A stretch of 64,000 nt of DNA from Alphaproteobacteria bacterium (GTDB lineage: Bacteria; Pseudomonadota; Alphaproteobacteria; Caulobacterales; Maricaulaceae), in NCBI GenBank assembly GCA_051252005.1, contig JBPOEZ010000003.1:164984-228983 (forward strand), given 5' to 3'. Shown piece after piece: positions 1-32,092 of this stretch. The notes under the pieces are model-generated. The model was not told the DNA's origin, searched no databases, and saw nothing but the letters and a program-made list of their open reading frames with translations. The translations under genes and the position numbers were made by a program. Numbering within the stretch: position 1 is the first letter of the stretch; the number at the start of each line of letters is the position of its first letter.

Positions 1-1595
1 CGACACAAGCTGAGAGCGGCGGGCCGCCTCAATTAGCATGGGCGGCTGATCAAGTAGCAGAGCCAATTTCGTGTGCTTCGATAGGGTTGAGGGCCTTGCT
101 TGAAAGCTCACTTGAGCAAGTCCGAGCGCTTTCGCTGACTCGAACACTGGATGCTGAAGGCTGGGCCACATCAGGATATCTTCCCACACCAACGATAGTT
201 GAAGCGGCACAAGCATTGTATCAAAACCATTCTGTTGAAGATATAGCGCGCTCGGATGCGGGCGCGAAGAACTTGAATGCGACGACGCAATGTCTACGAG
301 ATATCATTTCTGCCACGCATGAAAAACGAGAGAAGACGATTTGTTTTGTGACCGGCGTGCCAGGGTCAGGCAAAACGCTCGCTGGGCTAAATATGGCAAC
401 AGAGGCCGTCAATCGGCCTGACGGCGAGACGGCCGTTTTTCTATCGGGCAATGGACCTCTTGTCGATGTCTTAAGGGAAGCTCTCGCACGGGACCAAAAG
501 GAACGGACAGGCTGCTCGAAAATAGATGCTAAGCGCGAGGTCTCTAGCTTTGTTCAAAACATCCATCATTTCCGGGATGAGGCACTCAAGGATACTAAGG
601 CGCCGCCGGAGCACATCGTGATCTTCGATGAAGCGCAAAGGGCGTGGGACAAACATCAAGCCTCTAAGTTCATGCAGGCCAAAAGAGGTCAAACCGGTTT
701 CAATAAGTCCGAACCTGAATTTTTGATTGAAGTTATGGACCGCCATGAGGATTGGTCTGTCATCATTTGCCTTGTTGGCGGTGGCCAGGAGATCAACACG
801 GGCGAAGCGGGTCTTTCAGAATGGATAAGGGCCTTAGAGGGACGCTTCACCGAGTGGAATGTACATCTTTCAGATCGCCTCCTAGATCCGCATTATGGGC
901 TGGCAGAGACTGCGCTAGCGCTGAAGGCCGACAAAAGAATTCAGTGGCAACCGGATCTTCACTTAGGTGTCTCCATGCGGTCCTTTCGGGCGGAGGCTCT
1001 GTCCGGCTTTGTGGCTGCAGTGCTGGACGGTGATGCTGGAGAGGCATCTCGTCTTTTTGCGACGATCAAAACCCGCTACCCTATCGCTTTGGCACGGGAC
1101 CTGGAAACCGCACGCAAATGGCTAAGAGGCCATGCGCGTGGAAATGAACGGTTTGGATTTATGGCTTCCTCAGGCGCCCATCGCTTAAGGCCTGAAGGCT
1201 TGAATGTCCGCGTTAGTATTGATGCCGTGAATTGGTTTCTCAATGGGCCTGAAGATGTGCGCTCCGCTTATTACCTCGAAGAAGTTGCTACTGAGTTTGA
1301 TGTACAGGGCCTGGAAGTGGACTGGGCAGGTGTGTGTTGGGACGCGGACCTTCGTTATGTAGCCGGCGCTTGGGATATGTTGGCGTTTCGAGGGACCAAG
1401 TGGCAAAATGTTAACCAGGAAGCACGCAAAACTTATTTGATAAATGCCTATAGGGTTATTCTGACAAGGGCACGCCAAGGGCTCGTTATTTATATTCCAA
1501 AAGGGGATCCCTCAGATCCAACGCGTCCTCCGTGGTTTTATGACGAGACGGTGGAGTTTCTAGTTAGTTGCGGGATACCGATTTCAAGCATTTAG
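1..1595 (+). CDS. DUF2075-type (Schlafen-helicase-like) P-loop NTPase; the 5' end is probably outside the window
   Basis: Track ORF 87..1595. Walker A GVPGSGKT, Walker B IVIFDEAQRAW, SF1-like C-terminal motif ILTRARQGLVIYIP. The same frame has no stop from nt 3 up to the TTG at 87, so the gene probably begins upstream of the window. Confidence 0.7.
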   Translation, partial: TQAESGGPPQLAWAADQVAEPISCASIGLRALLESSLEQVRALSLTRTLDAEGWATSGYLPTPTIVEAAQALYQNHSVEDIARSDAGAKNLNATTQCLRDIISATHEKREKTICFVTGVPGSGKTLAGLNMATEAVNRPDGETAVFLSGNGPLVDVLREALARDQKERTGCSKIDAKREVSSFVQNIHHFRDEALKDTKAPPEHIVIFDEAQRAWDKHQASKFMQAKRGQTGFNKSEPEFLIEVMDRHEDWSVIICLVGGGQEINTGEAGLSEWIRALEGRFTEWNVHLSDRLLDPHYGLAETALALKADKRIQWQPDLHLGVSMRSFRAEALSGFVAAVLDGDAGEASRLFATIKTRYPIALARDLETARKWLRGHARGNERFGFMASSGAHRLRPEGLNVRVSIDAVNWFLNGPEDVRSAYYLEEVATEFDVQGLEVDWAGVCWDADLRYVAGAWDMLAFRGTKWQNVNQEARKTYLINAYRVILTRARQGLVIYIPKGDPSDPTRPPWFYDETVEFLVSCGIPISSI

Positions 1596-1691
1596 TGAAA
1601 GATTTTCCCCTCGCTAAATTTTGGGGTGGAAACATTCGTTGCTTACTTCTTCTCAGGGGGCAAACCGGACCTCAGCGAGTGCGGAATTTCA

Positions 1692-1742
1692 AACATTACC
1701 AGCGGCTGTTTTGGAGCGATTTTAGGACGCTGGTAAGAGGAC
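1692..1742 (+). repeat. Leader-head repeat copy A (AACATTACCAGCGGCTGTTTTGGAGCGATTTTAGGAC...GAGGAC)
   Basis: Aligns by eye with 2445-2506, 31643-31704 and the reverse complement of 8065-8125. All share the same 5' boundary (AACATTACC). Confidence 0.65.
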
Positions 1743-1777
1743 CGTTATTTGAACAGACTAGGCTTCAGGCCCGAGAT

Positions 1778-2320
1778 TTAGTCTAGGGGCGGACCAGGAA
1801 AACTGCTCTCATGTCGTTTCATATCTATTTCAAAAGTTTTAGAAATAGTGGGGTCTCCAGATTTGCTCGGGAATTCAGCCTCCAAACGTATGCAGAGTTT
1901 TTCAATATCGCTTTCGATATATACTTTATTAATTGCTCTTGCAGAGGTGTCGTGGTTATAGGCATCTTCAGACTTTTTGATTTCAATTTCTCCCATCTCC
2001 ATTTTAACGGGCCTATCACATCCCCCTGAATATGCAGATATTCCCGATGTAATCGCATCATAACGGGTGTCGAGATACTCAGGATAGCGCGATATTCGTG
2101 CCGAAATCCAAAAATCATGGTCGTCCCAAGACGCTCCGCTTGATCCGGAGAATGCAGTAACGCTAGCAGACACATTCCAGCCCTCAAAACTGACATCATT
2201 GGTTTGCTTAAACACGCGGGTCTTATAAATCACGCAGCCGCTTAAGGTGACCATTAGTCCAACGAGGGCAAAATTTAGACTAAGACGTCCAAGCCATCTC
2301 TTCATGGTGAGTTGAATCAT
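1778..2320 (-). CDS. Hypothetical lipoprotein
   Basis: Track ORF. N-terminal signal with lipobox LSGC. No recognisable family. Confidence 0.6.
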   Translation of the reverse strand: MIQLTMKRWLGRLSLNFALVGLMVTLSGCVIYKTRVFKQTNDVSFEGWNVSASVTAFSGSSGASWDDHDFWISARISRYPEYLDTRYDAITSGISAYSGGCDRPVKMEMGEIEIKKSEDAYNHDTSARAINKVYIESDIEKLCIRLEAEFPSKSGDPTISKTFEIDMKRHESSFPGPPLD

Positions 2321-2444
2321 GACGTCTATTTCGTCCCTCAGTAAATATCGTTCGACCTAATATTTTTAATTCTTACTTTAAGTTAAAGATTATAGAAAAC
2401 CACCGAGAATTATCCCATTTCCGATAGATGGTGGCGTATCGACT

Positions 2445-2506
2445 AACATTACCGGCGGCCGTTTTTGGGCGACAAAGGCCTCTGGGCTAATGTCCGCAAT
2501 GAGGAT
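2445..2506 (+). repeat. Leader-head repeat copy B (AACATTACCGGCGGCCGTTTTTGGGCG...GCTAATGTCCGCAATGAGGAT)
   Basis: Same head as copies A, D and E. Its last ~22 nt (GCTAATGTCCGCAATGAGGAT) recur at 4996-5016, where the leader of recombinase module 1 resumes. Confidence 0.7.
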
Positions 2507-2560
2507 GATCTTCTCAATCAGAGGGCTGAGTCGGATTTAAAATTCTGAACCACATTCATG

Positions 2561-3304
2561 TTATTGATGTGGTTCAATGGGCGGAAGTGACATCCCGTAG
2601 GCAGCGTAGTCGCCAAGTCCTGAAGAACGGTAAGGTGCGTGAAAGTATCCGTTATCCCCCCACGCTGACCCCAAACTATTCTTTATTCTCCAAAGTCTCG
2701 ACGTATTGTCGTATCCAGTGATGACAACCATGTGACTGTATTTCACGCCGTTAGGGTTCACCACAAAGGGATCACGACCTGTCCAGTTTATAAATGCATA
2801 ATCAATATCCATTGCCGCCGCGACAGGCGATCCACTCGCCAGAGTATATTTGACTTGGTCATCACCGGAGCAAGGTAAAAAGACTGGCGCGTAAATGTCG
2901 CGAAGGATATCGCAATTATCACTATCCCACGGAACACTCCCTTGGCTTGCCCGCGGGACATAGGAATCACTCAATTGCATGGAGACCGTTTCTGGATCAG
3001 CTCCGTTGTCACAGTGGACACCAGAAGAACAATTGTGGATCCACGCGGCTCCCACATCATAAAGCTTATTTGTGATCGCCAGATGGTAGCTTTCTATCAG
3101 CGCTGCGAAAGAGAAAGCTGTGCAAGCGCCTGAGCAGGGCAATTGGCTTTTTACAGGCGAAATTCTGCCTTCATTCACGAGATTCACGGATGGGCGTGCT
3201 GACAATGGCAGAAACTTAAACTCTCTGCCTAAAAAGTCCCCGGGCTGGTAACGCGCAATGAAATCATTTTCGGGAGGTTTGAACTTTACGGGGTGATCTA
3301 TCAT
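2561..3304 (-). CDS. Papain-like (C1 family) cysteine peptidase
   Basis: Motifs SPVKSQLPCSGACTAFSF (Gln / catalytic Cys region), HMVVITGYD (His) and WRIKNSLGSAWGDNGYF (Asn/Trp region). No obvious signal peptide. The 4-nt ATGA overlap with the upstream gene suggests translational coupling. Confidence 0.75.
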   Translation of the reverse strand: MIDHPVKFKPPENDFIARYQPGDFLGREFKFLPLSARPSVNLVNEGRISPVKSQLPCSGACTAFSFAALIESYHLAITNKLYDVGAAWIHNCSSGVHCDNGADPETVSMQLSDSYVPRASQGSVPWDSDNCDILRDIYAPVFLPCSGDDQVKYTLASGSPVAAAMDIDYAFINWTGRDPFVVNPNGVKYSHMVVITGYDNTSRLWRIKNSLGSAWGDNGYFHAPYRSSGLGDYAAYGMSLPPIEPHQ

Positions 3305-4749
3305 CCTCCCTCTAGCTCCGCGAGACGTGCCGCCGTTTCGAGCTGGGCAATACGTGCCTGATCAACCAAAGTATCAATTGTCAACATATCGATCAATTGC
3401 TGGCTTGCGGTAACATCTGGCGGGTTTAAAGTGGCAAGCGCCTCGCGACGTGCGACCTCGTCTTGCAATGCCTTAAGTTCTGCAGCTGCTTCTACCTCGC
3501 GAGCGGCCTCTAGTGCTTGCACTTCCGTTTTAATCGCATCCACTGCTGATGTCAGGGCGGCAATTGGTGCGCCAACCTGTTTGTAGCCGGCTTTTGTCAA
3601 ATTGCCCTTTTTCGAAAACTCAATGGTATATTCAAGACTCTCGAATGGGGCAGCAGAAACGACTAATTTATCTATGTAGCCAAGCTGAGCAACCTTGGCG
3701 CGATGGACGTGAATTTCAGACATAGCTACGGATGCAGGATATGGAAATGGTTTTGATGGATCTTTAATTTTCTCAAAGACCAACCGTCCCGGTTGCGGGG
3801 TGCGATAGGAAATTCCTTTGGCATTGATTGTTTTTTTGTCATCGAGATTGTCAATGCCATTTGCGTTGCTATCGGCTTCAAGCTTTACAAAGACATACAT
3901 GCTCTGCTTTTGGGTCGTGGTTGGGCTATTGCCTGCCCACTTCTTCAGAGTTGCTTCGGGAAGAGCATAGGGGGTCTTGTTTTCCCGGTCAGAGCCTTTT
4001 AGCGGCCAGTAAATAGGTTTTGTAGTGTGAGATATTGGCTTTAGCAAATCGGCGACATGTGCAATTTGTGCTTGCACTGCTGCGTTTGCGTCCCTCACTT
4101 CTGTAAGCTTAGCTTTAATATTTGGATCAAGGGCTGGGTCACTGGTATCAACTATGCCTTTGAATCCAGCTACCAGTTTGTTTAATTCAGTTTTACGTTT
4201 ATTAAGCGCTGCTGTTCTTGTTTTAAGTTCAGCTAATCCTGCATTAGCATCAGCTACGGCTGCTGGAATGCCCGCAGCGACGTTACAAGCATAAACGGGT
4301 GTTAATCCGGTTCCGGCTGGTACCCCCAGCGCTGCGCCAGCTACTTTGATCGCAGTTAATAATGCTGGCCCCGCCTCATCTTTAACGCTGGCATTTACTG
4401 TTTTCAGTAAGCGCGTGTCTTCATAAAAAGTAACTTCGACACCTGCTGAATTAAACCATGTCGAAAGTGATTGCGGATCAATAACAAATCGCGCATCAGC
4501 ATCTTCAATAGACCTATCTTTAACCGCGAAAGATGTAACAATTTTCATTTCGGCAGCAATATTATTCGCTGGATCAGCCTTTATGCATTCTGCAACACGG
4601 CGCGTTATATTGAATTCGAATTGTGTTAGCGGCAAGACATGAACAAGTCCCGTTTGAGGACCGGCTTGGTATTCATAGGTGTTGAGTGTTGAGCTACATC
4701 CAATCAGAACAATTGTCGCTGGAATGCTAATTCGCTTAATTTGTTTCAT
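3301..4749 (-). CDS. Hypothetical lipoprotein with coiled-coil segments
   Basis: Signal plus lipobox VLIGCSS. Ala/Leu/Glu-rich heptad-like stretches in the middle and at the C-terminus. No family recognised. Confidence 0.6.
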   Translation of the reverse strand: MKQIKRISIPATIVLIGCSSTLNTYEYQAGPQTGLVHVLPLTQFEFNITRRVAECIKADPANNIAAEMKIVTSFAVKDRSIEDADARFVIDPQSLSTWFNSAGVEVTFYEDTRLLKTVNASVKDEAGPALLTAIKVAGAALGVPAGTGLTPVYACNVAAGIPAAVADANAGLAELKTRTAALNKRKTELNKLVAGFKGIVDTSDPALDPNIKAKLTEVRDANAAVQAQIAHVADLLKPISHTTKPIYWPLKGSDRENKTPYALPEATLKKWAGNSPTTTQKQSMYVFVKLEADSNANGIDNLDDKKTINAKGISYRTPQPGRLVFEKIKDPSKPFPYPASVAMSEIHVHRAKVAQLGYIDKLVVSAAPFESLEYTIEFSKKGNLTKAGYKQVGAPIAALTSAVDAIKTEVQALEAAREVEAAAELKALQDEVARREALATLNPPDVTASQQLIDMLTIDTLVDQARIAQLETAARLAELEGG

Positions 4750-4995
4750 GCTGCGCCCCTAAATGTAGTTCCAACTAATTAGAAATAGCTCACCAAACTC
4801 GTTTTAGAGACGTTAGTATTCCAAATAAGTACATCTTATGATAGAGCATTGCCTGCAATTCGTCTAGTATATTTTGTAGAGACTTTAATTATTGAGAGTC
4901 ATAGGGAGGCCATATCACATGCATTTGTTTTATAGATTTTCGTACTCTGGGATTAACTCAGCCAATCCCCTAGATTAATCAAAGTGAGAGGTTTT

Positions 4996-5155
4996 GCTAA
5001 TGTCCGCTTTGAGGATCTTTTTCCGTTTTCAACATTCTCACACAATCCACTGGACTTTGTGCGCAAAGGAAGCGGTAGTGTGTTGCGGCCCAATGTGAGG
5101 GTCTTGTCTCGGTAGTAGCGGCCACGATGTGTGGGCGTCATTTACGGAGATTGAA
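4996..5155 (+). promoter_or_regulatory. Conserved 5' leader of recombinase module 1 (3' part only; the head is missing)
   Basis: Highly similar at the nucleotide level to 31684-31844. Contains hairpin candidates (GGCCCA..AGGGTC) and an RBS GGAGA before the ATG at 5156. Confidence 0.6.
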
Positions 5156-5404
5156 ATGGACATTCAAACACAAAAACCCGAAATTAAAGCACCGCGTACT
5201 GGAAGCAAACAAGCCAAGCTCGTTGTCATGCTCTCGCGCAAAAACGGCGTTACACTTGCGAAGGCCAGCGAGACTTTAGGATGGCTGCCGCATACCACCT
5301 CCGCAACCATGACAGGGCTGCGTGGGCGCGGCTATGAGATCACGCGGATTAAACGCGAGGGTAAAGATACGCTGTACGTCATCCATCCTGACGAGGCTGA
5401 GTAA
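5156..5404 (+). CDS. DUF3489-like small winged-helix protein
   Basis: Track ORF 5129..5404. I prefer the ATG at 5156 because it follows GGAGA and matches the start of the paralogue at 31845 (MDxQTQ..IKAPR.GSKQAKLV). HTH-like GVTLAKASETLGWLPHTTSA. Confidence 0.75.
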   Translation: MDIQTQKPEIKAPRTGSKQAKLVVMLSRKNGVTLAKASETLGWLPHTTSATMTGLRGRGYEITRIKREGKDTLYVIHPDEAE

Positions 5405-5904
5405 TGCGGCGGGCGAGCAAGATCGCATCAGAAGTCGCCGAGCTTGAAACACTGGACCGCGTTGCCCTCGCCGCGCAGTGGGAAGCTCTAATGAAACGTT
5501 CGCCGCCTAAGGCCTGTAGCCGTGTGTTTCTCCTCAGGGCTTTATCCTATGAACTGCAAAGTAAGCATGCTCCTGATCTCAGCAAGACGGACATGAGGGC
5601 ACTCAAAGCAAGCTTGGGCAAAGTACCAAGCAGTGCCGTTGAGAATGACAGGGAAGAGGATGCTGCGACCACAACACCTAACGCCAAGACCAAGCCGAGA
5701 CGCAAGGCCCCTGCCCGTCTGGCCCTTGTGCCGGGTGCCCGACTAGTGCGGGAATGGAACGGACAGGCCTATACGGTCTCGGTGATCAAAGAAGGTTTTG
5801 TCTATAAGGACAGAACTTGGAGCTCGCTGAGCGCTATCGCCAAGGATATCACGGGCGCACATTGGTCTGGGCCTCGCTTCTTTGGCTTGGATAAGGCAGC
5901 CTAA
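5404..5904 (+). CDS. DUF2924-like protein
   Basis: C-terminal WNGQAYTVSVIKEGFVYKDRTWSSLSAIAKDITGAHWSGPRFFGL. TAATG overlaps with both neighbouring genes. Confidence 0.75.
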   Translation: MRRASKIASEVAELETLDRVALAAQWEALMKRSPPKACSRVFLLRALSYELQSKHAPDLSKTDMRALKASLGKVPSSAVENDREEDAATTTPNAKTKPRRKAPARLALVPGARLVREWNGQAYTVSVIKEGFVYKDRTWSSLSAIAKDITGAHWSGPRFFGLDKAA

Positions 5905-7598
5905 TGTCTTCCCAGCGCAAACGCTGCGCTGTTTACACCCGCAAATCAAGTGAGGAAGGTTTGCAGCAAGACTTCAACTCTCTGGATGCGCAGGCCGAGA
6001 GTTGCTCAGCTTATATTCTGTCTCAAGCGGGTGAAGGCTGGTCCAAGGTCGATAAGGTCTATTCTGATGGCGGTATATCTGGAGGCCATATGGATAGGCC
6101 CGGTTTGATTGCCTTGATCGCGGATATCAAAGCGGGGCTGATTGATATCATCGTCGTTTACAAAGTTGACCGACTAACACGGTCACTGGCCGACTTTGCG
6201 CGGCTAGTAGATGTCTTTGATAAACATGACGTCTCGTTTGTGTCGATCACTCAAGCGTTCAATACAACGACCAGCATGGGACGGCTAACGCTGAATGTCC
6301 TGCTCTCCTTCGCCCAGTTCGAACGGGAAGTGACGGCGGAGCGTATCAGGGACAAGATCGCAGCCTCAAAGAAACGGGGGCAATGGATGGGCGGCCTTCC
6401 ACCTCTTGGATATGATAATATTAACAAGAAGCTGGTGGCAAATTCTGATGAAGCAAACACAGTCCAGCATATCATGACGCGGTATGTAGAGCTTAAGTCT
6501 GTCACAAAGCTCAAGCATGAACTTGACCTTGATGGTTATCTTACCAAAACCCGCATAACAAGGAAGCAGTCTCAGACAGGCGGCAAGCCCTTTAGCCGCG
6601 GCCACCTCTACAAGCTCCTTTGCAATCCCGTTTACATCGGCAAGACCACACATAAAGGCGTGGTCTTTGACGGACAGCATGATCCTATCGTTGATCAGGA
6701 ATTATGGAATTCGGTACAAGCAGGGCTCAAAGCAAATGCTCCTAAGCGAAGGCGTTCCATTAACATCGCATCGAATAGTCTTCTCACAGGGATGATCTTT
6801 GAAGATAGCGGAGACCGCCTTTCTCCCGTGCATTCTAGAAAGCCCAATGGAAGGCGTTACCGCTATTACATCTCGGCGCGATTATCAAAAGGCGAAATGG
6901 ATGACGGGACGGCCTTGAGGCTTCCGGCCAAACAGATTGAGGGTCAGGTGTTTAGGCGTCTGACAGACCTATTAAGCAATACAGGCCAATTGATGGGTAT
7001 GGTAGACGGCTCACACCTGACACCCCAACAGGTTTCAAAGGTAGAGCAGCATGCAAGCGAGCTAGCCGCGCGCCTCACATCAAACTGCGTTGAAACGCAG
7101 AGAACCCTACTGATTGATATCATTCAACGGATTACCATCTCGCCCAAGGACCTTATGTTGGAGCTTCGGAGGGACGCATTATTTCCAGATGGCATTTGCT
7201 CCCAAAAAGTCAAACTCGAAAACGACGCCATTACGCTCGCCTATCCGCTACAGATGAAGCGGCGCGGCATTGAGACTAAACTCATCATTGGCGGCGTGGC
7301 GTTAGGGCAGCCAGACCCCGAACTTATCAAACTTATTGCCAAGGCCAGAAACTGGTATGGTGGCCTTAAGACGGGACGCTTCAAATCTATCAAAGACATC
7401 GCAGCAATTGAAAAAATGGATGACGGTGATGTCAGCAGAACCTTATCCCTCGCCTTTCTTGCCCCCTCGATCATTCATGACATCATTGCTGGTAATCATG
7501 CTATAAATCTCACGCCAAGAGACTTAAGCCGCAAAGCTAATAGGCTTCCATTAGATTGGGCGCAGCAGCGCAGCTTTCTAGGCATGAAAGCTACCTAA
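5904..7598 (+). CDS. Large serine recombinase (resolvase/invertase N-domain plus recombinase domain)
   Basis: CAVYTRKSSEEGLQQDFNSLDAQ (catalytic Ser region), VVYKVDRLTRS, GHLYKLLCNPVYIGK. 564 aa. No CxxC pairs where a zinc ribbon would normally sit. Confidence 0.9.
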   Translation: MSSQRKRCAVYTRKSSEEGLQQDFNSLDAQAESCSAYILSQAGEGWSKVDKVYSDGGISGGHMDRPGLIALIADIKAGLIDIIVVYKVDRLTRSLADFARLVDVFDKHDVSFVSITQAFNTTTSMGRLTLNVLLSFAQFEREVTAERIRDKIAASKKRGQWMGGLPPLGYDNINKKLVANSDEANTVQHIMTRYVELKSVTKLKHELDLDGYLTKTRITRKQSQTGGKPFSRGHLYKLLCNPVYIGKTTHKGVVFDGQHDPIVDQELWNSVQAGLKANAPKRRRSINIASNSLLTGMIFEDSGDRLSPVHSRKPNGRRYRYYISARLSKGEMDDGTALRLPAKQIEGQVFRRLTDLLSNTGQLMGMVDGSHLTPQQVSKVEQHASELAARLTSNCVETQRTLLIDIIQRITISPKDLMLELRRDALFPDGICSQKVKLENDAITLAYPLQMKRRGIETKLIIGGVALGQPDPELIKLIAKARNWYGGLKTGRFKSIKDIAAIEKMDDGDVSRTLSLAFLAPSIIHDIIAGNHAINLTPRDLSRKANRLPLDWAQQRSFLGMKAT

Positions 7599-7831: not shown

Positions 7832-7839
7832 TGGACGCA
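7822..7839. other. attP-like junction between the two islands (TGCGT-N8-ACGCA dyad)
   Basis: The sequence tgcgtggtagtggacgca straddles the point (7831/7832) where homology with the tRNA-proximal arm stops. Confidence 0.5.
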
Positions 7840-7866
7840 GTCCGCAGATAGCCCGTCTCACGCCCA

Positions 7867-8058
7867 AATTCCCTGCTTTACAGGGAATTAACAGGGAATA
7901 TATTTGTTTTTCACCATAAATTCCGAATTCACCCCCTGCAAGCCACTGAAAACGCTATGAAATTTGGAGGTTTCCCTGCCTAAATTAACAGGGAATTTTA
8001 TTTTGCAAGCAGGGAAAGCTGATCGGGCGGCAGGGAATTACAAATTGGAAACAGGGTA
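7867..8058. repeat. Iteron-like cluster of CAGGGAA(T) motifs (8 copies)
   Basis: Copies at 7867-7875 (reverse complement), 7881-7889, 7892-7899, 7972-7978 (reverse complement), 7989-7997, 8010-8016, 8031-8038 and 8052-8058 (CAGGGTA). The first two form a perfect 9-bp inverted repeat AATTCCCTG/CAGGGAATT. Confidence 0.8.
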
Positions 8059-8064
8059 TATTAA

Positions 8065-8125
8065 AAACGCATAAGCCGCTGACATGGGAGTCCTAAACCG
8101 CCCAAAATAAGCCGCTGGTAATGTT
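8065..8125 (-). repeat. Leader-head repeat copy D (inverted orientation)
   Basis: The reverse complement reads AACATTACCAGCGGCTTATTTTGGGCGGTTTAGGACTCC..., which matches copies A and E. ATAAGCC(G/A)CT also recurs at 8071, 8107 and 8152. Confidence 0.7.
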
Positions 8126-8203
8126 TGTGAATACGGCAGAATTCGTCCAAAATAAGCCACTCATTTTATCTCCTACCAAACCCTGCGGACCTCAACTTGG
8201 TGG

Positions 8204-20548: not shown

Positions 20549-21268
20549 GTGCCGAAAGATGACGAAGCGGAACTGCGATTAGCTCTCATCCGGCTTGCTA
20601 AAAAATATGGCCGTTATGGCTACCGCAAGATAGCTGCACTTCTGCAAATGGAAGGCTGGATGATCAACCACAAAAAGGCTGAACGGTTGTGGAGAGAGGA
20701 AGGCCTTCAGCTTCCCAAGCGGCATAAGAAGCGTAAACGGCTGTATCACAAAGACAGCTCGGTCATAAGGCTCAGACCTCAGTATAAGAACCACATTTGG
20801 AGCGTAGACTTCGTACATGACAAGCTCAGTTCTGGCCGCTCTTATAAGATGCTGACAGTGCTGGATGAATATACCCGTCAGGCATTATGTGTTGAAGTGA
20901 AGTCAAAGATGGGCTCGGCGGATGTATTGGAAGCTTTGTATCCTCTTCTGCTAAAACACGGAAAGCCGGAATACATCCGCTCAGATAATGGCTCTGAGTT
21001 TATCGCAACTGCGCTCCAGCTCTGGTTACGCAAGGTTGGGGTCAAGCCGATACAGATCTACCCTGGGTCACCTTGGGAAAATGGATATAATGAGCGCTTC
21101 AATGGAACTCTCCGCCATGAAGTCCTCAATGCAGAATGGTTCACCAGCATCAATCAGGCCCAAACAGTTATCAACATGTGGCTCAAAGAGTACAATCACA
21201 TAAGGCCGCATCAATCCCTAAACATGCGTCCGCCGGTCCCAGAGACTCTACATCAAAGTGGTACATAA
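20549..21268 (+). CDS. IS3-family transposase OrfB (DDE integrase core), probably made as an OrfAB fusion
   Basis: WSVDFVHD, SDNGSEF and ERFNGTLRHEV motifs. The frame is open upstream to 20414 without its own obvious start. Confidence 0.85.
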   Translation: MPKDDEAELRLALIRLAKKYGRYGYRKIAALLQMEGWMINHKKAERLWREEGLQLPKRHKKRKRLYHKDSSVIRLRPQYKNHIWSVDFVHDKLSSGRSYKMLTVLDEYTRQALCVEVKSKMGSADVLEALYPLLLKHGKPEYIRSDNGSEFIATALQLWLRKVGVKPIQIYPGSPWENGYNERFNGTLRHEVLNAEWFTSINQAQTVINMWLKEYNHIRPHQSLNMRPPVPETLHQSGT

Positions 21269-21372: not shown

Positions 21373-21456
21373 AACCTACGTTTCTGCGAGCGGCCGTAGT
21401 TGGCGATTTTAAGCCGCTCAGTTTTCGGCAGCGCGGGGGTTGCGGACGTTAGAATC
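21373..21456 (+). repeat. Leader-head repeat copy F (diverged)
   Basis: GAGCGGCCGTAGTTGGCGATTTTAAGCCGCT...GTTAGAATC aligns with copy A (CAGCGGCTGTTTTGGAGCGATTTTAGGACGCT) and copy E (..CTTAGAGGATC). Its head is poorly conserved. Confidence 0.4.
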
Positions 21457-21507
21457 AAATGAAGAACGGTATAAAAAATAAATTCCGAACGATGCGCGCC
21501 GCCGCGA

Positions 21508-23541
21508 TTACGATGTATGCTTGCTACGTTTGTATCCTAACAACCGCAGCGCATTGAAAACCACAATCAAGGTGGAGCCTTCATGGATTAAGACCGCCGG
21601 ACCAATCCCTAGTCCAAATAAAGTCGCCGGAATAAGCAGCGCAACAGTACCGAGGCTCGCCCATAAATTTTGCCGAATGATCCGGCTGGTCTGACGGCTA
21701 AGCCCAACGGCAAAGGGCAAGGTTTCCAAATCATCCGCCATCAAGGCAATGTCTGCGGTTTCGAGCGCCACATCAGAACCTGCAGCGCCCATGGCGATAC
21801 CAACCGTTGCATTGGCCATAGCGGGCGCATCATTGACGCCATCCCCAACCATAGCGACGCCACCTTGAGCTTTCAGTTCTGCGATTTTGGTCACTTTATC
21901 TTCGGGCATCAGGTCGCCGAACGCGATATCCAATCCAACCTCTTTCGCTACAGCATTGGCCACATTCTGATTGTCTCCCGAGATCATCATCATGCGCTTG
22001 AGACCAATAGCGCGAAGGTCAGCGATAACGGTTTTGGCCGTCTCGCGCGGCGTATCCATGAGGCCTATTGCACCTAAATATCGCTCGCCCGCGCGCACGA
22101 TCATCGTCGTGCGGCCTTTGGTTGATAGTTCTTCAACGAGCCTGCGTAAGTCATCCGGTAACGGCGAACCCTCGGCCTCATCAAACAGCGCTGTCTTACC
22201 GATATGTACGAGTTCACCATTCACTCTGGCCGATACGCCTTGGCCGATAATATTCGCAAAATCTGTTGCCTCACGGGGATTATCTCCCAAGCGCTTTTTG
22301 ACATCTTCAACAACGGCCTGCGCTAATGGATGGTCACTGAGCGCTTCGACCGCCGCGCTGATTTCAAGGAGTTCTGTTTCCGATGTGTCGCCATAAGGCA
22401 CGATGTCCACCAGAAGAGGCTCACCAATGGTCAGCGTGCCAGTCTTGTCAAAAGCAATTGCGTCGAGACGACCCAGTGCTTCAAGCGGCGCGCCGCCTTT
22501 TATCAAAACGCCGCCGCGCGCAGCTCGGGCAACGCCTGACAATATGGCGCTCGGCGTTGCAATCGCCAGCGCGCAGGGACTGGCCGCGACTAAGACCGCC
22601 ATGGCGCGGTAAAAACTCGTGGCGGGACTCTCATCTAAGACAAGGAATGACAGGCTCGTCAAAACGGCCAAGACAATCACGCACGGCACGAATATTCTTT
22701 CAAACTTCTTGGTGAAGCTCTGCGTCGGAGATTGTCGAGTTTGCGCTTCGGCGACCATTGTCATCACGCGCGCCAATGTTGTTTCACCCGCCAGTTTTGT
22801 GACGAGCACTTCAAGACTACCGCTGCCGTTAATTGAGCCGGCAAAGACGCGGCCCGATGCAGAGACAGCATCCGGATTTTCTAATGCCCGTGCGCGGTCC
22901 TCAACCGGCAATTTGTCTACAGGCGCGCTTTCACCTGTAATCGGCGCTTGATTGACGGCGCTTGCACCTTTGACAACAAATCCGTCTGCAGGCAGGCGTT
23001 CATTTGAGCGCACAATAACAATGTCGCCAATTTTGAGCGCGTTGATATGAACAGTTTCCGTTTTATCGCCGCGCCGAACCAAAGCCTCATCGGGCGTTAA
23101 ATCGGCGAGCGCTGCAACAGCATTTCGGGCGCGGGCCATAGCATAATTCTCAAGCGCATGGCCAATACTGAATAAGAAAAGTAAAAATGCGCCTTCCGCC
23201 CATTCGCCTAAAAATGCGGCTCCCGATGCGGCCACTATCATCAGAAAATCTATTTGGAATTGCCCTTTGAGTATTTTCCCGAGCGCTTCGCGCAAAGCGA
23301 AATACCCGCCGAAGAAATAAGCGGCAAGCAAAAACCCAAACCCGACTTGTCCGGGAATGAGATTAAGTTTCGGCCCAAGCCAGCCCGTCAGCAAACAAAT
23401 CCCGCAAAGGGCCGCAAATATGATTTCAGCGCGTCCGCCTAGAAGACGGTTTAAGACATCATCATGGGCGTGGTTGTGTCCGTCATTTTCAGTGTGATCA
23501 TCGCCATCAGGCTCATTTGAATGTTCGTGTTTATCAGACAT
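21508..23541 (-). CDS. P1B-type heavy-metal ATPase with an SPC motif (P1B-4-like, Co/Zn/Cd type)
   Basis: DKTGTLT, GDGVNDAPA, TM motif ASPCALAIATP, His-rich N-terminus (HEHSNEPDGDDHTENDGHNHAHDD). No ferredoxin-fold CxxC metal-binding domain. Confidence 0.85.
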   Translation of the reverse strand: MSDKHEHSNEPDGDDHTENDGHNHAHDDVLNRLLGGRAEIIFAALCGICLLTGWLGPKLNLIPGQVGFGFLLAAYFFGGYFALREALGKILKGQFQIDFLMIVAASGAAFLGEWAEGAFLLFLFSIGHALENYAMARARNAVAALADLTPDEALVRRGDKTETVHINALKIGDIVIVRSNERLPADGFVVKGASAVNQAPITGESAPVDKLPVEDRARALENPDAVSASGRVFAGSINGSGSLEVLVTKLAGETTLARVMTMVAEAQTRQSPTQSFTKKFERIFVPCVIVLAVLTSLSFLVLDESPATSFYRAMAVLVAASPCALAIATPSAILSGVARAARGGVLIKGGAPLEALGRLDAIAFDKTGTLTIGEPLLVDIVPYGDTSETELLEISAAVEALSDHPLAQAVVEDVKKRLGDNPREATDFANIIGQGVSARVNGELVHIGKTALFDEAEGSPLPDDLRRLVEELSTKGRTTMIVRAGERYLGAIGLMDTPRETAKTVIADLRAIGLKRMMMISGDNQNVANAVAKEVGLDIAFGDLMPEDKVTKIAELKAQGGVAMVGDGVNDAPAMANATVGIAMGAAGSDVALETADIALMADDLETLPFAVGLSRQTSRIIRQNLWASLGTVALLIPATLFGLGIGPAVLIHEGSTLIVVFNALRLLGYKRSKHTS

Positions 23542-23595
23542 AGTAAATTCCTTTAGTCAGGCTCCGACGGGCAGAGGCCAATCGGAGCCCTTTAA

Positions 23596-26500
23596 TCATT
23601 CAGCCAAAGCCGCGTTACCTTCATGCAACGTCTCAACCATAGAATGGTGCCCGCCGGGTTTTGGCGCGAACCATTTATGGAGCGCGGGCATAACAAGGAG
23701 CGTGAGTAAGGTTGATGTTACTAAGCCGCCAATGACCACGGTTGCCAATGGGCGTTGCACTTCTGCGCCGACGCCTGTCGCGAGCAATAAAGGCGCAAGC
23801 CCCAGTGCGGTTGTCAGGGCCGTCATTAAGACGGGGCGCGCCCGAAGTCCGGCGGCATCAATCGCGAGCGTATCGCGGTCGCGTCCGGCGCGGGCAAAAT
23901 CATCCATGAAGCTCACCAGCACCATGCCGTTTCCGAGCGCAATACCAAACAGCGCAATGAAACCAACTGTTGCAGGCACTGAAACAGGCAGGCCCGTTAT
24001 CCACAGCGCCAAAGCACCGCCCGTCAAAGCCAGCGGGATATTCAACAAGATGAGTATAGCCGATTTCATTCTGCCGAATGTGATGAGCAATATGAAGAAC
24101 ACAATGGCCAGCGTGATCGGAATGACAACGGCAAACCTTGCATTGGCCTGTTGTTGCAATTCGAATTGCCCGCCCCAAATCAGGCGATAGCCCGGCGGTA
24201 GATTAAGCTGTTCGTCCGTCAACGCCTGCGCGTCTAAAACGAAAGACCCAATATCACGTCCGCGTACATTGGATTGCACCGTGATGAAACGCTCACCATC
24301 CTCTCGCGTGATCTGGCGCGGACCGATAACGGTTTCAATACTGGCAACGGTCTCTAAAGGCACGCGCGCACCAGTAGAGGATTTTAAAATTATCCGACTA
24401 ATTGCCTCCGGCGTATTTCTGTCCTCGGCATGGAAGCGCACAACAATCGGGAATTGCCTAACACCCTCAAAGAGCGCACCCGCTTCAGCGCCGCCAACAG
24501 AGGCACGCAGGGCATCCAACGCATCTTCGACATCCAAACCGTAACGGCCCAACGCTGCCCGATCCATTGTCACAACGAGCTGCGGAGCGCCTGTGATCTG
24601 GTCGGCCTGCACTTCGGCGGCTCCCTCGACTTGCTGTAGCAGAGCCTGCAAAACCTTTGACTGCTCAAGCAAAACATCAGAATCGGGTCCAAATATTTTG
24701 ACGGCTAATTCTGCTCGGGTGCCTGTTAGTAGCTCATCAACTGACATCGCAATGGGCTGACCAATATTAACGACAATTCCCGGATAACTTTCTAGGTTTT
24801 CAGAAATGCCAGCACGCAAATCCTCAGCCGACAGTCCAGCCCGCCATTGATCTTGCGTCTTAAGCTCAACAAAGCTTTCCGCACTATTGGTCGGATCGGC
24901 ATGAGCACCGACTTCGCCGCGCCCGATACGTGTCACAATAGATTTGATTTCAGGGAAGGTTTCCAGAAGACGTTTTTCGACACGCGTTGTGGTCGCAGAC
25001 GCTTCGGTCAATGAAATAGACGGCGCCATAGTCATGCGCAGTAAAATATCCCCTTCTTCTAAGGCTGGCGTAAATTCAGAGCCAAGGCGCGACCCCGCCA
25101 ATCCTCCGGCAAGCAATAAAATGCCGGCAAGCACTATGGCGGCAAATCTTTTCCTCACGAAAAAGCTTGAAGCCATACTTACATATTTGGCTAATGGGTC
25201 TGGCTTGTCAGATTTACGTTTAGATGAGCGGCGCATGAGTCCATTGGCCATCGCAGGCGCGATAAGCGCGGCATAAAAAAGAGACCCTGTCATCGCCAAG
25301 GCAGCCGAAGCAGCCAGCGGCCTAAATGTCTTACCTTCTACGCCTTGAAGAGAAAATAAGGGCAAAAAGACAACGATAACCACGATCACGGCGGCAACCA
25401 GAGGCGCAATAACCTCAGCCGATGAGCGCGCGACAATCGTGCGTGTGTCAACACTGAAATCGCTTTCTCGCAATCCCCGGTCAACATTCTCGGTAATGAC
25501 AATAGCGCCGTCCACCATCATACCGATGGCAATAGCCACGCCGCCCAATGACATGAGGTTAGCGCCTATCCCCAAGACATGCATCGCAATGAACGCAAAG
25601 CCAACCGAAAACGGAATTGAGAGGACGACGACCAAGCTTGGACGCCAACCGCCTAGGAAAATAAATACGACCACCGCTACCAGTAGAGCGCCTTGCCACA
25701 AAGCCGTTGTGACGGTGGCTGACGCTTTATTGACTAGATTGCCTTGATCATAATAGGGAATGGCTGTGACGCCTTCGGGGAGTGTTGTATTGATTTCATC
25801 GAAACGGGTCTGCACTTTGGCAATCACGTCAGATGTGTTGGTTCCGTAGAGCTTTAAGACGAGACCTGCGACGACTTCACCTTCACCATTGGCTGTCGCA
25901 AGGCCTTGGCGCACACCGCCGCCAATAATGATTTCGCCCAAATCGCGAACCCGAATAGGACGTCCATCATCAACATTAACAACGATTTCGGCTAAGTCTT
26001 CGACTGACCGCGCAAGACCTACGCCGCGAACCGTATATTGCTCCGCGCCGATTTCAAGAAATTGAGCGCCCTCGGTTTTATTTCCGCGCTCCAGCGCCGT
26101 CATCACATCACCGATTTGAATATCATAGGCAAGTAAGGCATCCGGATCTAGCTGAACCTGATATTGTTTCTCAAAACCGCCGAGCGACAAAACTTCAGTA
26201 ACGCCAGGAACCGTTTGCAATTGATATTTAATTATCCAGTCTTGTATTTCGCGCATATCAACAAGACTTCGTGTGCCCGTTTCATCCGCCAGTCTGAAAT
26301 ATAGAATAATGCCGAGGCCGGTAGAAATTGGCCCCATTTGCGGGTCGCCAAACCCGTCGGGAATATTGCCGCGCGCTTCCGCTAACCTCTCGCCGACAAC
26401 CTGCCGGGCAAAGTAAACATCCGTGCCGTCTTCAAAGTATATATTGACCACTGAAAGGCCAAAGTTTGAGACCGAACGCATGTTTTTAAGCTTTGGCAAG

Positions 26501-26721
26501 CCTGCCATGGCTGTCTCAATCGGATAGGTGACGTAGCGTTCGACTTCTTCAGGGGCGAGGCCTTCGGTTTCGGTGAACACCTGAACCAGTGAGGGTGTAA
26601 CGTCGGGAAAGGCGTCAACAGGCAATGCGCGGAACGCGTATATGCCGCCAAGTGTAATGGCGAGTGCGGCGATTGCAGCCAACAGGCGGCCTCCCGCAAT
26701 GCGATGCATAAAATTAAACAT
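23596..26721 (-). CDS. czcA: CzcA-type heavy-metal efflux RND pump
   Basis: 1041-aa HME-RND protein in a czcCBA-ordered operon. It lacks the CusA Met triad. Confidence 0.85.
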   Translation of the reverse strand: MFNFMHRIAGGRLLAAIAALAITLGGIYAFRALPVDAFPDVTPSLVQVFTETEGLAPEEVERYVTYPIETAMAGLPKLKNMRSVSNFGLSVVNIYFEDGTDVYFARQVVGERLAEARGNIPDGFGDPQMGPISTGLGIILYFRLADETGTRSLVDMREIQDWIIKYQLQTVPGVTEVLSLGGFEKQYQVQLDPDALLAYDIQIGDVMTALERGNKTEGAQFLEIGAEQYTVRGVGLARSVEDLAEIVVNVDDGRPIRVRDLGEIIIGGGVRQGLATANGEGEVVAGLVLKLYGTNTSDVIAKVQTRFDEINTTLPEGVTAIPYYDQGNLVNKASATVTTALWQGALLVAVVVFIFLGGWRPSLVVVLSIPFSVGFAFIAMHVLGIGANLMSLGGVAIAIGMMVDGAIVITENVDRGLRESDFSVDTRTIVARSSAEVIAPLVAAVIVVIVVFLPLFSLQGVEGKTFRPLAASAALAMTGSLFYAALIAPAMANGLMRRSSKRKSDKPDPLAKYVSMASSFFVRKRFAAIVLAGILLLAGGLAGSRLGSEFTPALEEGDILLRMTMAPSISLTEASATTTRVEKRLLETFPEIKSIVTRIGRGEVGAHADPTNSAESFVELKTQDQWRAGLSAEDLRAGISENLESYPGIVVNIGQPIAMSVDELLTGTRAELAVKIFGPDSDVLLEQSKVLQALLQQVEGAAEVQADQITGAPQLVVTMDRAALGRYGLDVEDALDALRASVGGAEAGALFEGVRQFPIVVRFHAEDRNTPEAISRIILKSSTGARVPLETVASIETVIGPRQITREDGERFITVQSNVRGRDIGSFVLDAQALTDEQLNLPPGYRLIWGGQFELQQQANARFAVVIPITLAIVFFILLITFGRMKSAILILLNIPLALTGGALALWITGLPVSVPATVGFIALFGIALGNGMVLVSFMDDFARAGRDRDTLAIDAAGLRARPVLMTALTTALGLAPLLLATGVGAEVQRPLATVVIGGLVTSTLLTLLVMPALHKWFAPKPGGHHSMVETLHEGNAALAE

Positions 26722-26732
26722 ATCTGATTTCC

Positions 26733-28007
26733 TTAATGTCCGTGACCATCGCCAAAGGCATCTTTTTCGAGCTGAGCTTTAAGCGTGAACGCACCTTCTG
26801 AGACAAAACTATCTCCGGCGCGTAGGCCTGACTGTATTTCGACGTAACCACCGGATTCAGATCCAATCGCCACAGATTGCGGGCTAAATCCGCCCTCGAC
26901 AGGCACGAAGACAGATATTTTGTTTTCGACTGTTTGAACGGAGCCGAGCGGAACACGTAGAACCGGCTGGGATTGCCCGACGCTGATGTCTGCTGTTACA
27001 AACTGCCCGGGGCGCAAGTTACCACCGGGATTATCTAGGATAACCCGCGCCGTGGCTGTGCGTGAGGTCTCATTAATTATGGGAAGAATAAAGGCGACGC
27101 TCGACTCTGCCAAAATATCGCCGTCATCAGATTTAAGAACAACGCGCGCCTGTTTTTTTATGCGGCTGATATCTTGCTTATAAACACCAATATCTGCCCA
27201 AACTACACTATCGTCAGCTATCGTGAACAGCGTTTGCGAACTTGCGTCGCCTGCGGAAACGGTTTCACCTAACGTCACGCTACGGCGGACTATTGTGCCG
27301 CTGATCGGCGCTCTCAAATATGAGTTGGAATTATCGCCGTCATCTGCCGTTGCGACTTTTTCCAATGCAGCATCGCTCACCCCCGCAGCATGGAGCTCAT
27401 TCTCAGCAGCGTCTTTTGCAGCTGTCATGGCTTCAAAATTGGCGCGGGCGGCTTGAACGTCAGCCTCGGCAGTAATTTTTTCAGCAAAGAGGTTTTCTTC
27501 TCGCGCCAGCGCTTTACCCGCTAAGGCCGATTGAGTTTGCGCTTTCAGCCAAACCGCTTTCAACCCTGCTAATTCGCGGCTGGAAATCAGCGCCAGCGTA
27601 TCCCCGCGCTTTACAGCATCGCCTTCGCTTGCATAAAGTTTGGCAATGATACCGCTGACCCTCGGCGATATATTGGCGACCCGATCTGCATCAAAACGGA
27701 TTTCAGCCGGTAGGCTGATATATTGACCTAGCTCTCCGAGCGTTGCTTGGGACACAACTATACCGGCTTCACGCGCGGCAGGCTCGGTCAATTTCACGAT
27801 GTCTTCATCACCGTCTTCGTCGCCATGCTCATCACCATGTTCGTCTTCATGGCCACCCTTATCAGCTCCATGATCATCGGAGCTTTGGGCCGAAGTTGGT
27901 GATATATTGGTGTCGGATTGTTGAATAACCCCTTTGTCGGCTCCGCAGGCTGTCAAAAGCAAAGCGGTTACGACTAAGGCCGTATTCAGTAGAAAATACT
28001 TTTTCAT
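26733..28007 (-). CDS. czcB: RND adaptor subunit (CzcB-like) with His/Asp/Glu-rich N- and C-termini
   Basis: Lipobox LTAC. DDHGADKGGHEDEHGDEHGDEDGDED. Ends in GDGHGH. Confidence 0.85.
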   Translation of the reverse strand: MKKYFLLNTALVVTALLLTACGADKGVIQQSDTNISPTSAQSSDDHGADKGGHEDEHGDEHGDEDGDEDIVKLTEPAAREAGIVVSQATLGELGQYISLPAEIRFDADRVANISPRVSGIIAKLYASEGDAVKRGDTLALISSRELAGLKAVWLKAQTQSALAGKALAREENLFAEKITAEADVQAARANFEAMTAAKDAAENELHAAGVSDAALEKVATADDGDNSNSYLRAPISGTIVRRSVTLGETVSAGDASSQTLFTIADDSVVWADIGVYKQDISRIKKQARVVLKSDDGDILAESSVAFILPIINETSRTATARVILDNPGGNLRPGQFVTADISVGQSQPVLRVPLGSVQTVENKISVFVPVEGGFSPQSVAIGSESGGYVEIQSGLRAGDSFVSEGAFTLKAQLEKDAFGDGHGH

Positions 28008-29299: not shown

Positions 29300-29364
29300 T
29301 GAAATTTATTCCTCGTGATAACCTAGAGACAAAACCAAGTGACAACTTGGCTATTTGCTAAAGG

Positions 29365-29721
29365 TTAGGCACGGGGAGGACGATACAGACCCATAGGAGC
29401 CGCGCGAGGCGCGACGTCGTAGACATTAAGACTATATCCGAGCCTGGCTGATATAGTATCAGCAGCCGACGCCAGTTGGAGCGAGGTTGCATGGATATGA
29501 CAGCTTCCACAGTTGTGAGCATGATGATCATGTGGCGGCTTGTTCGGTCGTTCCTGCTTTTGATCAACAGAGGCTGAGGACACAGCACCTTCATCCTGAC
29601 AAGCAATCTCATCCGGCTCTACGGGATGAATATCCGGCGTCACCGTTGCAAAGCTCATCATAACCGCCACGCAGACAGTCAGCCAAAATTTGGCAAGGGA
29701 TATGTAGCGTGTTGCAAACAT
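29365..29721 (-). CDS. CzcI-like small periplasmic His/Cys protein
   Basis: N-terminal TM/signal segment, HDHHAHNCGSCHIH motif, C-terminal RPPRA. First gene of the czc operon. Confidence 0.5.
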   Translation of the reverse strand: MFATRYISLAKFWLTVCVAVMMSFATVTPDIHPVEPDEIACQDEGAVSSASVDQKQERPNKPPHDHHAHNCGSCHIHATSLQLASAADTISARLGYSLNVYDVAPRAAPMGLYRPPRA

Positions 29722-29727
29722 TGGGTC

Positions 29728-29758
29728 TAATTAGCACCTACAGTCACTGGAGGGTCAA
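29728..29758 (-). promoter_or_regulatory. MerR-type promoter (TTGACC-N19-TAATTA) with dyad CCTCCAGTGACTGTAGG
   Basis: Read on the minus strand. The 19-bp spacer contains an imperfect copy of the operator found at 30245-30259. Confidence 0.6.
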
Positions 29759-29776
29759 GAGAATAATACAGTCTGC

Positions 29777-30226: not shown

Positions 30227-30238
30227 ATCATTTTTCTC

Positions 30239-30269
30239 TTGCCTCTACAGTGACTGTAGACAGTAGATT
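30239..30269 (+). promoter_or_regulatory. MerR-type promoter TTGCCT-N19-TAGATT with a perfect dyad CTACAGT-G-ACTGTAG
   Basis: Lies between the divergent merR-family gene and the CDF gene. The 19-bp spacer is the MerR-family hallmark. Confidence 0.7.
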
Positions 30270-30302
30270 ATTCTCGAAATTGCACAAGAGGACGATGATA
30301 AG

Positions 30303-31485: not shown

Positions 31486-31642
31486 AAAGAGATTTGCCTT
31501 TCAAGGTGACTACTTTCAAACTTAAGGCTGTCAGCGATAGTCTTAGCATCGCCTCAAGAATAGTACGGGGCTAATGACCAATTTGGGGATGGACTTTCTT
31601 TTTTTAAGTGCCCGAAATAGATCGAATACTCTGCATATCGCA

Positions 31643-31844
31643 AACATTACCAGAGGCCGTGTTTGGGCGTTTTAAGACTCCGAGCTAAGGTCGTCTTAGA
31701 GGATCTTTTTCCGTTTTCCATTATCTTCCACAACCCACTGGACTTCCTTCGCAAAGGAAGCAGTAGTGTCTTGCGGCCCTGATGTGAGGGCCTTGTCTCA
31801 GTAGTAGCGGTCACATTGAGTGATCGCCAATCACGGAGACCAAA
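31643..31844 (+). promoter_or_regulatory. Complete conserved leader of recombinase module 2 (head = repeat copy E, 31643-31704)
   Basis: Begins with AACATTACCAGAGGCCGTGTTTGGGCG. Hairpins CTTCCTT-cgca-AAGGAAG and GGCCCT-gatgtg-AGGGCC. RBS GGAGA before the ATG at 31845. Confidence 0.65.
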
Positions 31845-32090: not shown

Positions 32091-32092
32091 CC

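Follow-up and report, generated by a model that had tools for sequence, protein, structure and literature searches.

The stretch of DNA analyzed here (the window; 64,000 nucleotides of contig JBPOEZ010000003.1 from an alphaproteobacterium of the Maricaulaceae) holds two tandem genomic islands, each of which ends in a three-gene module coding for a DUF3489 protein, a DUF2924 protein, and a 564-aa large serine recombinase (M1 in the first island; M2, at 31846-34302, in the second; nucleotide identity between the two, 74-82%). Our subject is the region 2486-5016 at the right end of the first island, which is bounded by two near-identical 21-mers in direct orientation, here termed the core (Table 1). 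The original prediction read this region as the leader of M1, split by a discrete 2.5-kb cassette whose insertion had duplicated a recombination-prone core.

The 21-mers themselves are as predicted: 19 of their 21 positions are identical, and they differ at positions 13-14 alone (AA in the first, TT in the second). A search of all 64 kb allowing up to three mismatches returned only these two, and none was found in 100 dinucleotide-preserving shuffles, which speaks against a chance match. We also rejected a transposon's target-site duplication, which would be short (2-14 bp), identical, and unique to its site, because the repeat is 21 nt long, has two mismatches, and is a member of a larger family in both its copies. 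Between them, again as predicted, lie only an operon of two open reading frames (ORFs) and the AT-rich region upstream of it. The ORF at 2561-3304(-) codes for a papain-family C1 peptidase (Peptidase_C1), and that at 3301-4749(-), which overlaps the peptidase gene, codes for a 482-aa lipoprotein-like protein that has a lipobox and no Pfam match.

The region upstream of M2 (31634-31779) is uninterrupted and runs from a head (31634-31683) through the core (31684-31704) into a tail. Copy B together with the first core (2436-2506) aligns to this head and core of M2 and then diverges from M2; M1 aligns to M2 from the first base of the core onward (96 nt, 83%) and has no head. Hence, the prediction that M1 is headless and resumes at the core stands.

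Table 1. Coordinates of the repeat modules, cassettes, and recombinase-operon features in the window
Feature	Position	Strand	Evidence or remark
Decayed linker and L1 module (…CTTCTCAGGGGGCAAACCGGACCTCAGCGAGTGCGGAATTTC) before copy A	1620..1682	+	L1/linker consensus upstream of T1 sites
Copy A, T1 type; H is AAACATTACCAGCGGCTGTTTTGG, R1 hairpin is GGAGCGATTTTAGGACGCT	1683..1740	+	nhmmer, 25.9 bits; class L1R1
Cassette 1, 180-aa ORF	1778..2320	-	No Pfam or PADLOC match
Copy B, T2 type; L2-like flank, H, R2a tail GGGCGACAAAGGCCTCTGG	2436..2485	+	nhmmer, 23.1 bits; alignment to M2
Core copy 1, GCTAATGTCCGCAATGAGGAT	2486..2506	+	
Short linker and degenerate R1 remnant, family-typical after the core	2507..2535	+	Class of L159 and L102
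Cassette 2, two-gene operon (lipoprotein-like protein, C1 peptidase)	2561..4749	-	
AT-rich region upstream of the operon	4750..4995	-	Promoter-like site at 4866-4838, consensus match only
Core copy 2, headless, GCTAATGTCCGCTTTGAGGAT	4996..5016	+	
T-rich spacer common to M1, M2, L046, and L005 only	5017..5048	+	
Leader of the recombinase operon, conserved in nine modules	5049..5156	+	Alignment, consensus fold
Module 1 (M1): DUF3489, DUF2924, large serine recombinase	5157..7598	+	Pfam
Inverted T2 copy just inside the left end of island 2	8086..8134	-	
Complete T2 and core directly upstream of the M2 leader	31634..31704	+	

A mosaic repeat family and the leader of the recombinase operon

The dispersed, mosaic repeat family to which head and core belong occurs in Algimonas-like marine Alphaproteobacteria and is independent of the recombinase module. 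The degenerate head pattern AACATTRCCRGMGKCYKNKTTKGRGC (~41 bits), which we used to retrieve metagenome loci, matches 107 marine metagenome contigs and has no match in viral contigs; with an nhmmer profile based on six copies, we counted 190 heads across the fetched loci and the window. The 555 kb of fetched loci, whose GC content is 0.505 (versus 0.51 in the window), contain neither the DUF3489, DUF2924, and serine recombinase module nor the leader tail. The repeats are instead flanked by diverse housekeeping genes, such as those for the topoisomerase IV/gyrase A subunit, Met-tRNA synthetase, DNA polymerase III alpha, GidA, and thiolases.

Members of the family are built from the modules L2, H, R2, core, linker, L1, and R1. 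The ~30-nt head H (AAACATTACCAGCGGCYGTTTTTGGGCG) is common to two main types of site. In T1, H is followed by GGAGCGATTTTAGGACGCTC (R1) and often preceded by GGGGGCAAACCGGACCTCAGCGAGTGCGAAATCTC (L1), and in T2, it is followed by GGGCGACAACGGCCTCTG or GGGCGTTTTAAGCCGCTC (R2) and usually preceded by TATTTTGGGCGAATACTGCC.TATTGCC (L2). The core is an optional extra module, of which a relaxed pattern recovers ~40 family copies; these come after T2, after a right-half T2, or, in 12 copies including that of M1, after sequence without a recognizable head. Beyond its GAGGAT, a long linker leads into L1-T1 in 16 cases, a short linker leads into R1 in 3 cases (copy B of the window among them), and a module-specific T-rich tail follows in M1, M2, L046, and L005; otherwise, the core is followed by unrelated DNA (~20 copies). 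In 6 of 15 of the long-linker composites, the core can pair with an inverted copy of itself inside L1 over 10 to 12 of 12 positions, position 6 being covariant (G-C, C-G, and T-A), and the composite in L078 has a 16-bp stem. A further conserved module of ~100 nt (GGGGGCTTAGGAGACGTTAGGCGAAGCCTAAAAATCGATCC...GGCCACGGCAGTGGCAAGCGGACC) lies ahead of many L1-T1 sites (in L062, L068, L078, L085, L090, L140, and L143), and a core-like 21-mer is found inverted directly after the T2 head in L003 (4209-4229) and L144 (~2654).

Against this background, copy B does not end at GAGGAT, as had been supposed. Its similarity to other family members continues through 2507-2535, where GATCTTCTCAATCAGAGGGCTGAGT resembles their post-core sequence, for example, GATCTTCCCAATAGCTGAGTG in L159, with L102 as a further case; therefore, copy B is an intact family copy that was not truncated at 2506. 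Further, in the informative part of R2, it agrees with the head of M2 at just 6 of 14 positions and is of a different subtype. Since the family occurs without the recombinase module in the fetched stretches, copy B and the leader of M1 arose independently, an outcome that the original prediction had named as refuting it, and the reading of a split leader is not supported.

The true leader starts further downstream. In nine modules (M1, M2, L046, L005, L008, L031, L002, L001, and L003), upstream conservation begins at ACTGGACTT (position 5049 in the window) and extends to the ribosome-binding site before the DUF3489 start codon; in L008, L031, L002, and L001, the DNA 5' of this point is unrelated. 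Head and core are both present only in M2 and L046 among these nine modules, are partial in L005 and L003, and are reduced to the core alone in M1. Judging from this alignment, head and core are not leader sequence but lie upstream of the conserved leader. For the leader itself (~110 nt; 5049-5156 and 31737-31845), the consensus fold has 27 predicted pairs, with few compensatory changes, and Rfam has no match for it; the leader may act as a regulatory RNA or through several protein-binding sites. Rfam gives nothing at the gathering threshold for the window and nothing at an E value of ≤1 for 1550-5200.

The serine recombinase has an attachment (att) site of its own. A tRNA-Met gene (34536-34612, minus strand) abuts M2, and ~230 conserved nt that follow both modules end in GCGTGCGTGGTAG (7832-7846 and 34532-34544), which in M2 supplies the 3' end of the tRNA. 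A tRNA-Met gene adjoins the same module in four other genomes (L002, L003, L005, and L008), those of Algimonas arctica, A. ampicilliniresistens, an uncultured Algimonas, and a Maricaulaceae metagenome-assembled genome (MAG). Taken with the GCGTGCGTGGTAG ends, this places the integration of the islands at the 3' end of tRNA-Met, which is the recombinase's own att site; GCGTGCGTGGTAG bears no resemblance to head or core. We therefore rejected head or core as the att site of the adjacent serine recombinase island, which ends at the tRNA-Met 3' end, the repeats also existing without the module in the fetched 555 kb.

These findings bear directly on the split leader in its strict form, in which a circular 2.5-kb cassette would have integrated at the core of a head-core-tail leader and duplicated the core, the latter being a secondary site of the island's serine recombinase. 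Insertion at the core would yield the present structure without an extra deletion, the head-core-tail arrangement stands uninterrupted in M2 and L046, the homology of M1 to M2 begins exactly at the core, and the homology between the window and L144 breaks off at the left edge of a core. We nevertheless regard this scenario as very unlikely: the 190 copies on 107 contigs lack the module in the fetched stretches and the conserved leader begins downstream of head and core, the R2 of copy B is of another subtype than that of M2, the att site of the islands is unlike head or core, and homologues of the operon are found elsewhere without the core.

Cassette arrays and exchange at the repeats

The region 1620-5016 can be described as a small co-oriented array with the island 1 cargo on one side and the real M1 leader on the other. 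Its A-B interval is filled by the 180-aa gene and measures 753 bp from head to head, near the family median of 846 bp; the counterpart position ahead of M2 has a single complete T2 with its core. Arrays of this kind recur in the family: all 76 adjacent head pairs in multi-head contigs are co-oriented, usually with one ORF per interval. The interval ORFs are highly diverse, 57 of them falling into 54 clusters and matching 27 Pfam families, each by one or two ORFs; the matches are typical of accessory-gene arrays (DUF6624, DUF4274, DUF4279, WG repeats, LRR, HAD, and acyltransferase). The order of sites is (T1)n-T2 in 36 arrays by our count, and T2 followed by T1 across a cassette was seen at one locus only, sampled twice. 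Along the arrays, the flanks fall into the classes L1R1, L2R1, and L2R2. A simple attL/attR hybrid model, which predicts L2R1 at the first site and L1R2 at the last, was rejected, as the first sites are L1R1 and the terminal ones L2R2. Collapsed or truncated junction variants, with spacings of 45-58 nt or with right-half-only sites, are common.

Comparison of related contigs reveals exchange of cassettes at the repeats: a given cassette occurs beside different neighbors, and a given locus contains different cassettes. L148 and L158 have a common right flank (99.9-100%) and left flank (~90%) but hold one versus two different cassettes. A cassette that is 99.9% identical in L107 and L148, along with its L2 and H, is followed by sequences that differ from R2 outward; L072 and L122 are 100% identical over 5 kb, starting from the first base of H; and in four more pairs (L092/L080, L062/L143, L117/L124, and L158/L129), the cassette is common and the neighbor different. 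The two best-resolved crossovers in allelic contigs fall in H (AAACATTACC...GGGCG) and not in the core. Both edges of the core are, for their part, recurrent junctions; at one of them, 31683|31684, the left edge of the M2 core, the homology between the window and L144 (88%) stops. An att model with the core as universal crossover was rejected, since only 4-5 of ~25 L1-type array starts carry an upstream core. Taking these findings together, we consider it probable that the two 21-mers are core-module copies of the dispersed mosaic repeat family, marking joints between gene cassettes that assort independently. The original prediction of a discrete cassette at a recombination-prone 21-mer is thus partly supported. 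What endures of it is a block bounded by direct 21-mers with recurrent edges, in a family that exchanges such blocks in related genomes; crossovers best resolved in H and operon homologues that lack the core do not support it. The core may be called a recombination-prone site on the strength of its edges, but it shows no link to the adjacent serine recombinase, whose att site is unrelated.

Several observations weigh against a cassette system that operates through these repeats. The ORFs within arrays run in mixed directions (39 opposite to the heads and 28 in the same direction), the core precedes few of the L1-type array starts, as noted above, and inverted members exist, namely, the T2 copy of the window (8134, minus strand) and the cores in L003 and L144. 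Retrieval by the head pattern means that the conservation of the head is partly built in. The DNA folds of T1, copy B, and the M2 site are not significant (z from +0.43 to -1.13), unlike those of attC. The evidence implicates no recombinase: the att site of the adjacent serine recombinase is unrelated, the repeats are found without this enzyme in the fetched stretches, and there is none among the matches listed (top 25 of 113 families) for 105 array-flanking ORFs. Genes found here in cassettes also travel without repeats, as the homologue of the 180-aa gene in L164 (84% at the nucleotide level) covers the ORF only, in another context without repeats, and the operon gene pair is kept in L043, L044, and L045 with neither head nor core around it; flanking of the operon by the same core elsewhere had been predicted and was not borne out. 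Finally, the uninterrupted head-core-tail expected in homologous islands is present in M2 and L046, but all five public contigs with this exact operon or recombinase have the same arrangement as the window, with no empty site.

Some of these points would be accommodated if the repeats were passive mosaics of the REP, BIME, RIME, or NIME type, spread by a transposase of their own or structural or regulatory in role, the differences in gene content arising by ordinary homologous recombination and deletion without any mobility of cassettes. The dispersed, intergenic, and mosaic nature of the family and its many module combinations fit this alternative, as do the REPIN-like pairing of the core with an inverted L1 copy in 6 of 15 composites with its changes at position 6, the spread of breakpoints over several modules instead of one point, and the lack of a nearby recombinase among the matches listed (top 25 of 113 families). 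REP clusters, though, usually alternate in orientation and lie close together; perfect co-orientation over 76 intervals, the strict (T1)n-T2 order, one ORF per interval, and identical cassettes with different neighbors and breakpoints precisely at the repeats would not be expected of them. Hence, we find passive repeats a rather unlikely account. 

We favor cassettes assorting at the repeats, and would picture them as being gained or replaced by recombination inside conserved modules, mostly in H and sometimes in the core, through an enzyme presumably encoded elsewhere. The chances that a dedicated site-specific recombinase is behind the exchange are about even; exchange driven by homology alone is a possible but not a probable source of the turnover. 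In the window, the starting point would be an M2-like precursor (T2-core-leader), to which a Campbell-type join at the core of an incoming circle carrying a core, the short linker, the R1 remnant, and the operon would be the shortest route. Such a join is plausible because both core edges are recurrent junctions; in its favor, the M1/M2 homology starts at the core, and the window/L144 homology ends at 31683|31684. Against a general role of the core stand the few L1-type array starts that have one, the crossovers in H, and the operon homologues without repeats, and we would give the arrival of the operon by a join at the core slightly less than an even chance. Otherwise, L2-H-R2 may have been deleted, or the repeats may have mediated an event of another kind. 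With a deletion, the present structure would be the remnant of a canonical array end: the operon would once have ended in a full T2 and core, and the later loss of L2-H-R2 would mimic an insertion flanked by cores. Canonical arrays do end in T2, and collapsed or truncated junctions are common; however, the deletion must have ended exactly at the first base of the core, and the eleven other headless cores suggest a recurrent process and not an accident, making this history highly improbable.

The pair of genes in the operon is itself rare, with 4 clusters in 5.8 billion proteins, and its homologues sit in variable regions, one in an integrative and conjugative element beside SIR2, OLD/UvrD (Gabija-like), and ArdA genes and others on two further contigs beside defense-type genes, with TIR/ThsB genes among the neighbors. 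PADLOC has no match for the cassette proteins (the 180-aa ORF and the operon pair). The lipoprotein-like protein and the C1 peptidase may be an unrecognized accessory or defense pair.

Comparison with known systems

These repeat-bounded gene cassettes have an integron-like organization but fail the tests that define integrons. Like integron cassettes and CALINs (clusters of attC sites without an integrase), they form co-oriented arrays of short conserved sites, usually with one highly diverse ORF between them, have a distinct terminal site, and combine the same cassette with different neighbors; as in CALINs, no adjacent recombinase is needed. Unlike integrons, they have neither RYYYAAC nor GTTRRRY on either strand of the T1/T2 consensus and no significant hairpin, no intI is seen near the array (among the called genes around the window and the 25 of 113 flanking families listed), and their ORFs point in both directions, apparently with their own promoters. 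Further, there are dozens of short arrays among housekeeping genes, as opposed to a single platform beside intI. The genes called between 6.7 kb left of the window and ~+21 kb likewise include no Phage_integrase domain, and the czc/cop block has none either.

Other parallels are suggested by intergenic mosaic repeats. BIME/REP (REPIN-RAYT), RIME, and NIME/dRS3 elements are also dispersed, intergenic units of 20-150 nt with a few modules combined in various ways, some of them palindromic; RIME is the rhizobial form, and the NIME/dRS3 repeats of Neisseria flank strain-variable genes and act as integration sites. The present family differs from these in its strictly direct orientation, in a polar order that is maintained across whole genes, and in having one ORF between copies. 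Its heads are direct repeats and not inverted ones, and the core-L1 pairing seen in some composites resembles a REPIN. A block without a recombinase between direct 21-mers also resembles the accreted att sites of cis-mobilizable elements (CIMEs) and integrative mobilizable elements (IMEs), including the tRNA-Met islands of this window, and the T2-core-linker-T1 composites resemble attP-type joints between tandem units; unlike in accreted att sites, most array starts lack the core, crossovers fall mostly in H, and the att site of the islands is unrelated. Finally, the pdif modules of Acinetobacter plasmids are gene modules bounded by Xer sites that are inverted and dif-like. They share with the present cassettes the small gene modules bounded by short conserved sites, the many contexts, and a recombinase located elsewhere; here, in contrast, the sites are direct, and H and core are not dif-like.

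In light of these comparisons, we tentatively propose that Algimonas-like Alphaproteobacteria carry an integron-like but mechanistically distinct system, in which dozens of dispersed T2 recipient sites, with or without a core, would acquire single-gene cassettes bearing T1 sites by means of a trans-acting recombinase that acts on double-stranded H or core. The islands might then use the resident T2-core site upstream of the recombinase operon to gather cargo, of which the protease operon and the metal-resistance block would be part. A split leader would have been a local curiosity, but a repeat family through which accessory genes are arranged in exchangeable units of one gene, both in mobile islands and at numerous places in the chromosome, brings a cassette organization to a bacterial class from which integrons have been reported to be entirely absent (PMC9668308). 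If a dedicated recombinase is involved, cassette capture would have been solved a second time, independently, and there would be a handle on how small islands acquire defense-like and metal-resistance cargo; if the exchange is homologous and takes place at the repeats, it would still explain strain-level gene turnover in these alga-associated bacteria. In either case, such repeats should not be read as regulatory leaders.

Island cargo and neighboring genes

The literature that we found on DUF2924 and DUF3489 holds no description of this module or of these repeats, and a plasmid collection gave distant matches to the N-terminal region of the recombinase only. In 7866-8060, after the island junction and before the inverted T2 copy, there are approximately six copies of (A)CAGGGAA(T); an accessory or directionality factor may bind to them.

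The cargo of island 2 (8204-31485) is a copper/czc-type metal-resistance cluster collinear with the metagenome contigs L047-L056. The PEMT and MauE genes are adjacent in those contigs; a circularized island 2 would interpose the module, the att region, and two inverted T2 copies between them. In the Maricaulaceae MAG, positions 1-9050 of L005 match the ATPase/RND block of the window (21403-30461) with 92% identity. This block is inverted relative to the L005 module (80% identity) and abuts the core, which implies that cargo has been exchanged or inverted independently of the module. An inversion between inverted heads was considered for L005 and set aside, as the L005 locus is truncated at 10 kb and the partner site in the window (21376-21445) is only weakly head-like. 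An IS3-family transposase gene (rve, rve_3, and HTH_21; 20549-21268), whose stop codon is ~130 nt from that site, stands beside the joint of the two halves of the metal cluster.

At the left end of the window, the ORF at 87-1595 (659 aa in the full contig) codes for a Schlafen-group-3 helicase that matches the PADLOC candidate defense family PDC-S41 (E value, 2e-230); just outside the window on this side are an M78 peptidase/HTH pair, an N6/N4 methyltransferase gene, and a DUF5681 gene. In the right half, an 868-aa ORF (46445-49051) contains a five-copy, in-frame tandem repeat of 33 nt (GAACG[CG]GC...GAAGAACAACGTGAA) at 48179-48325.

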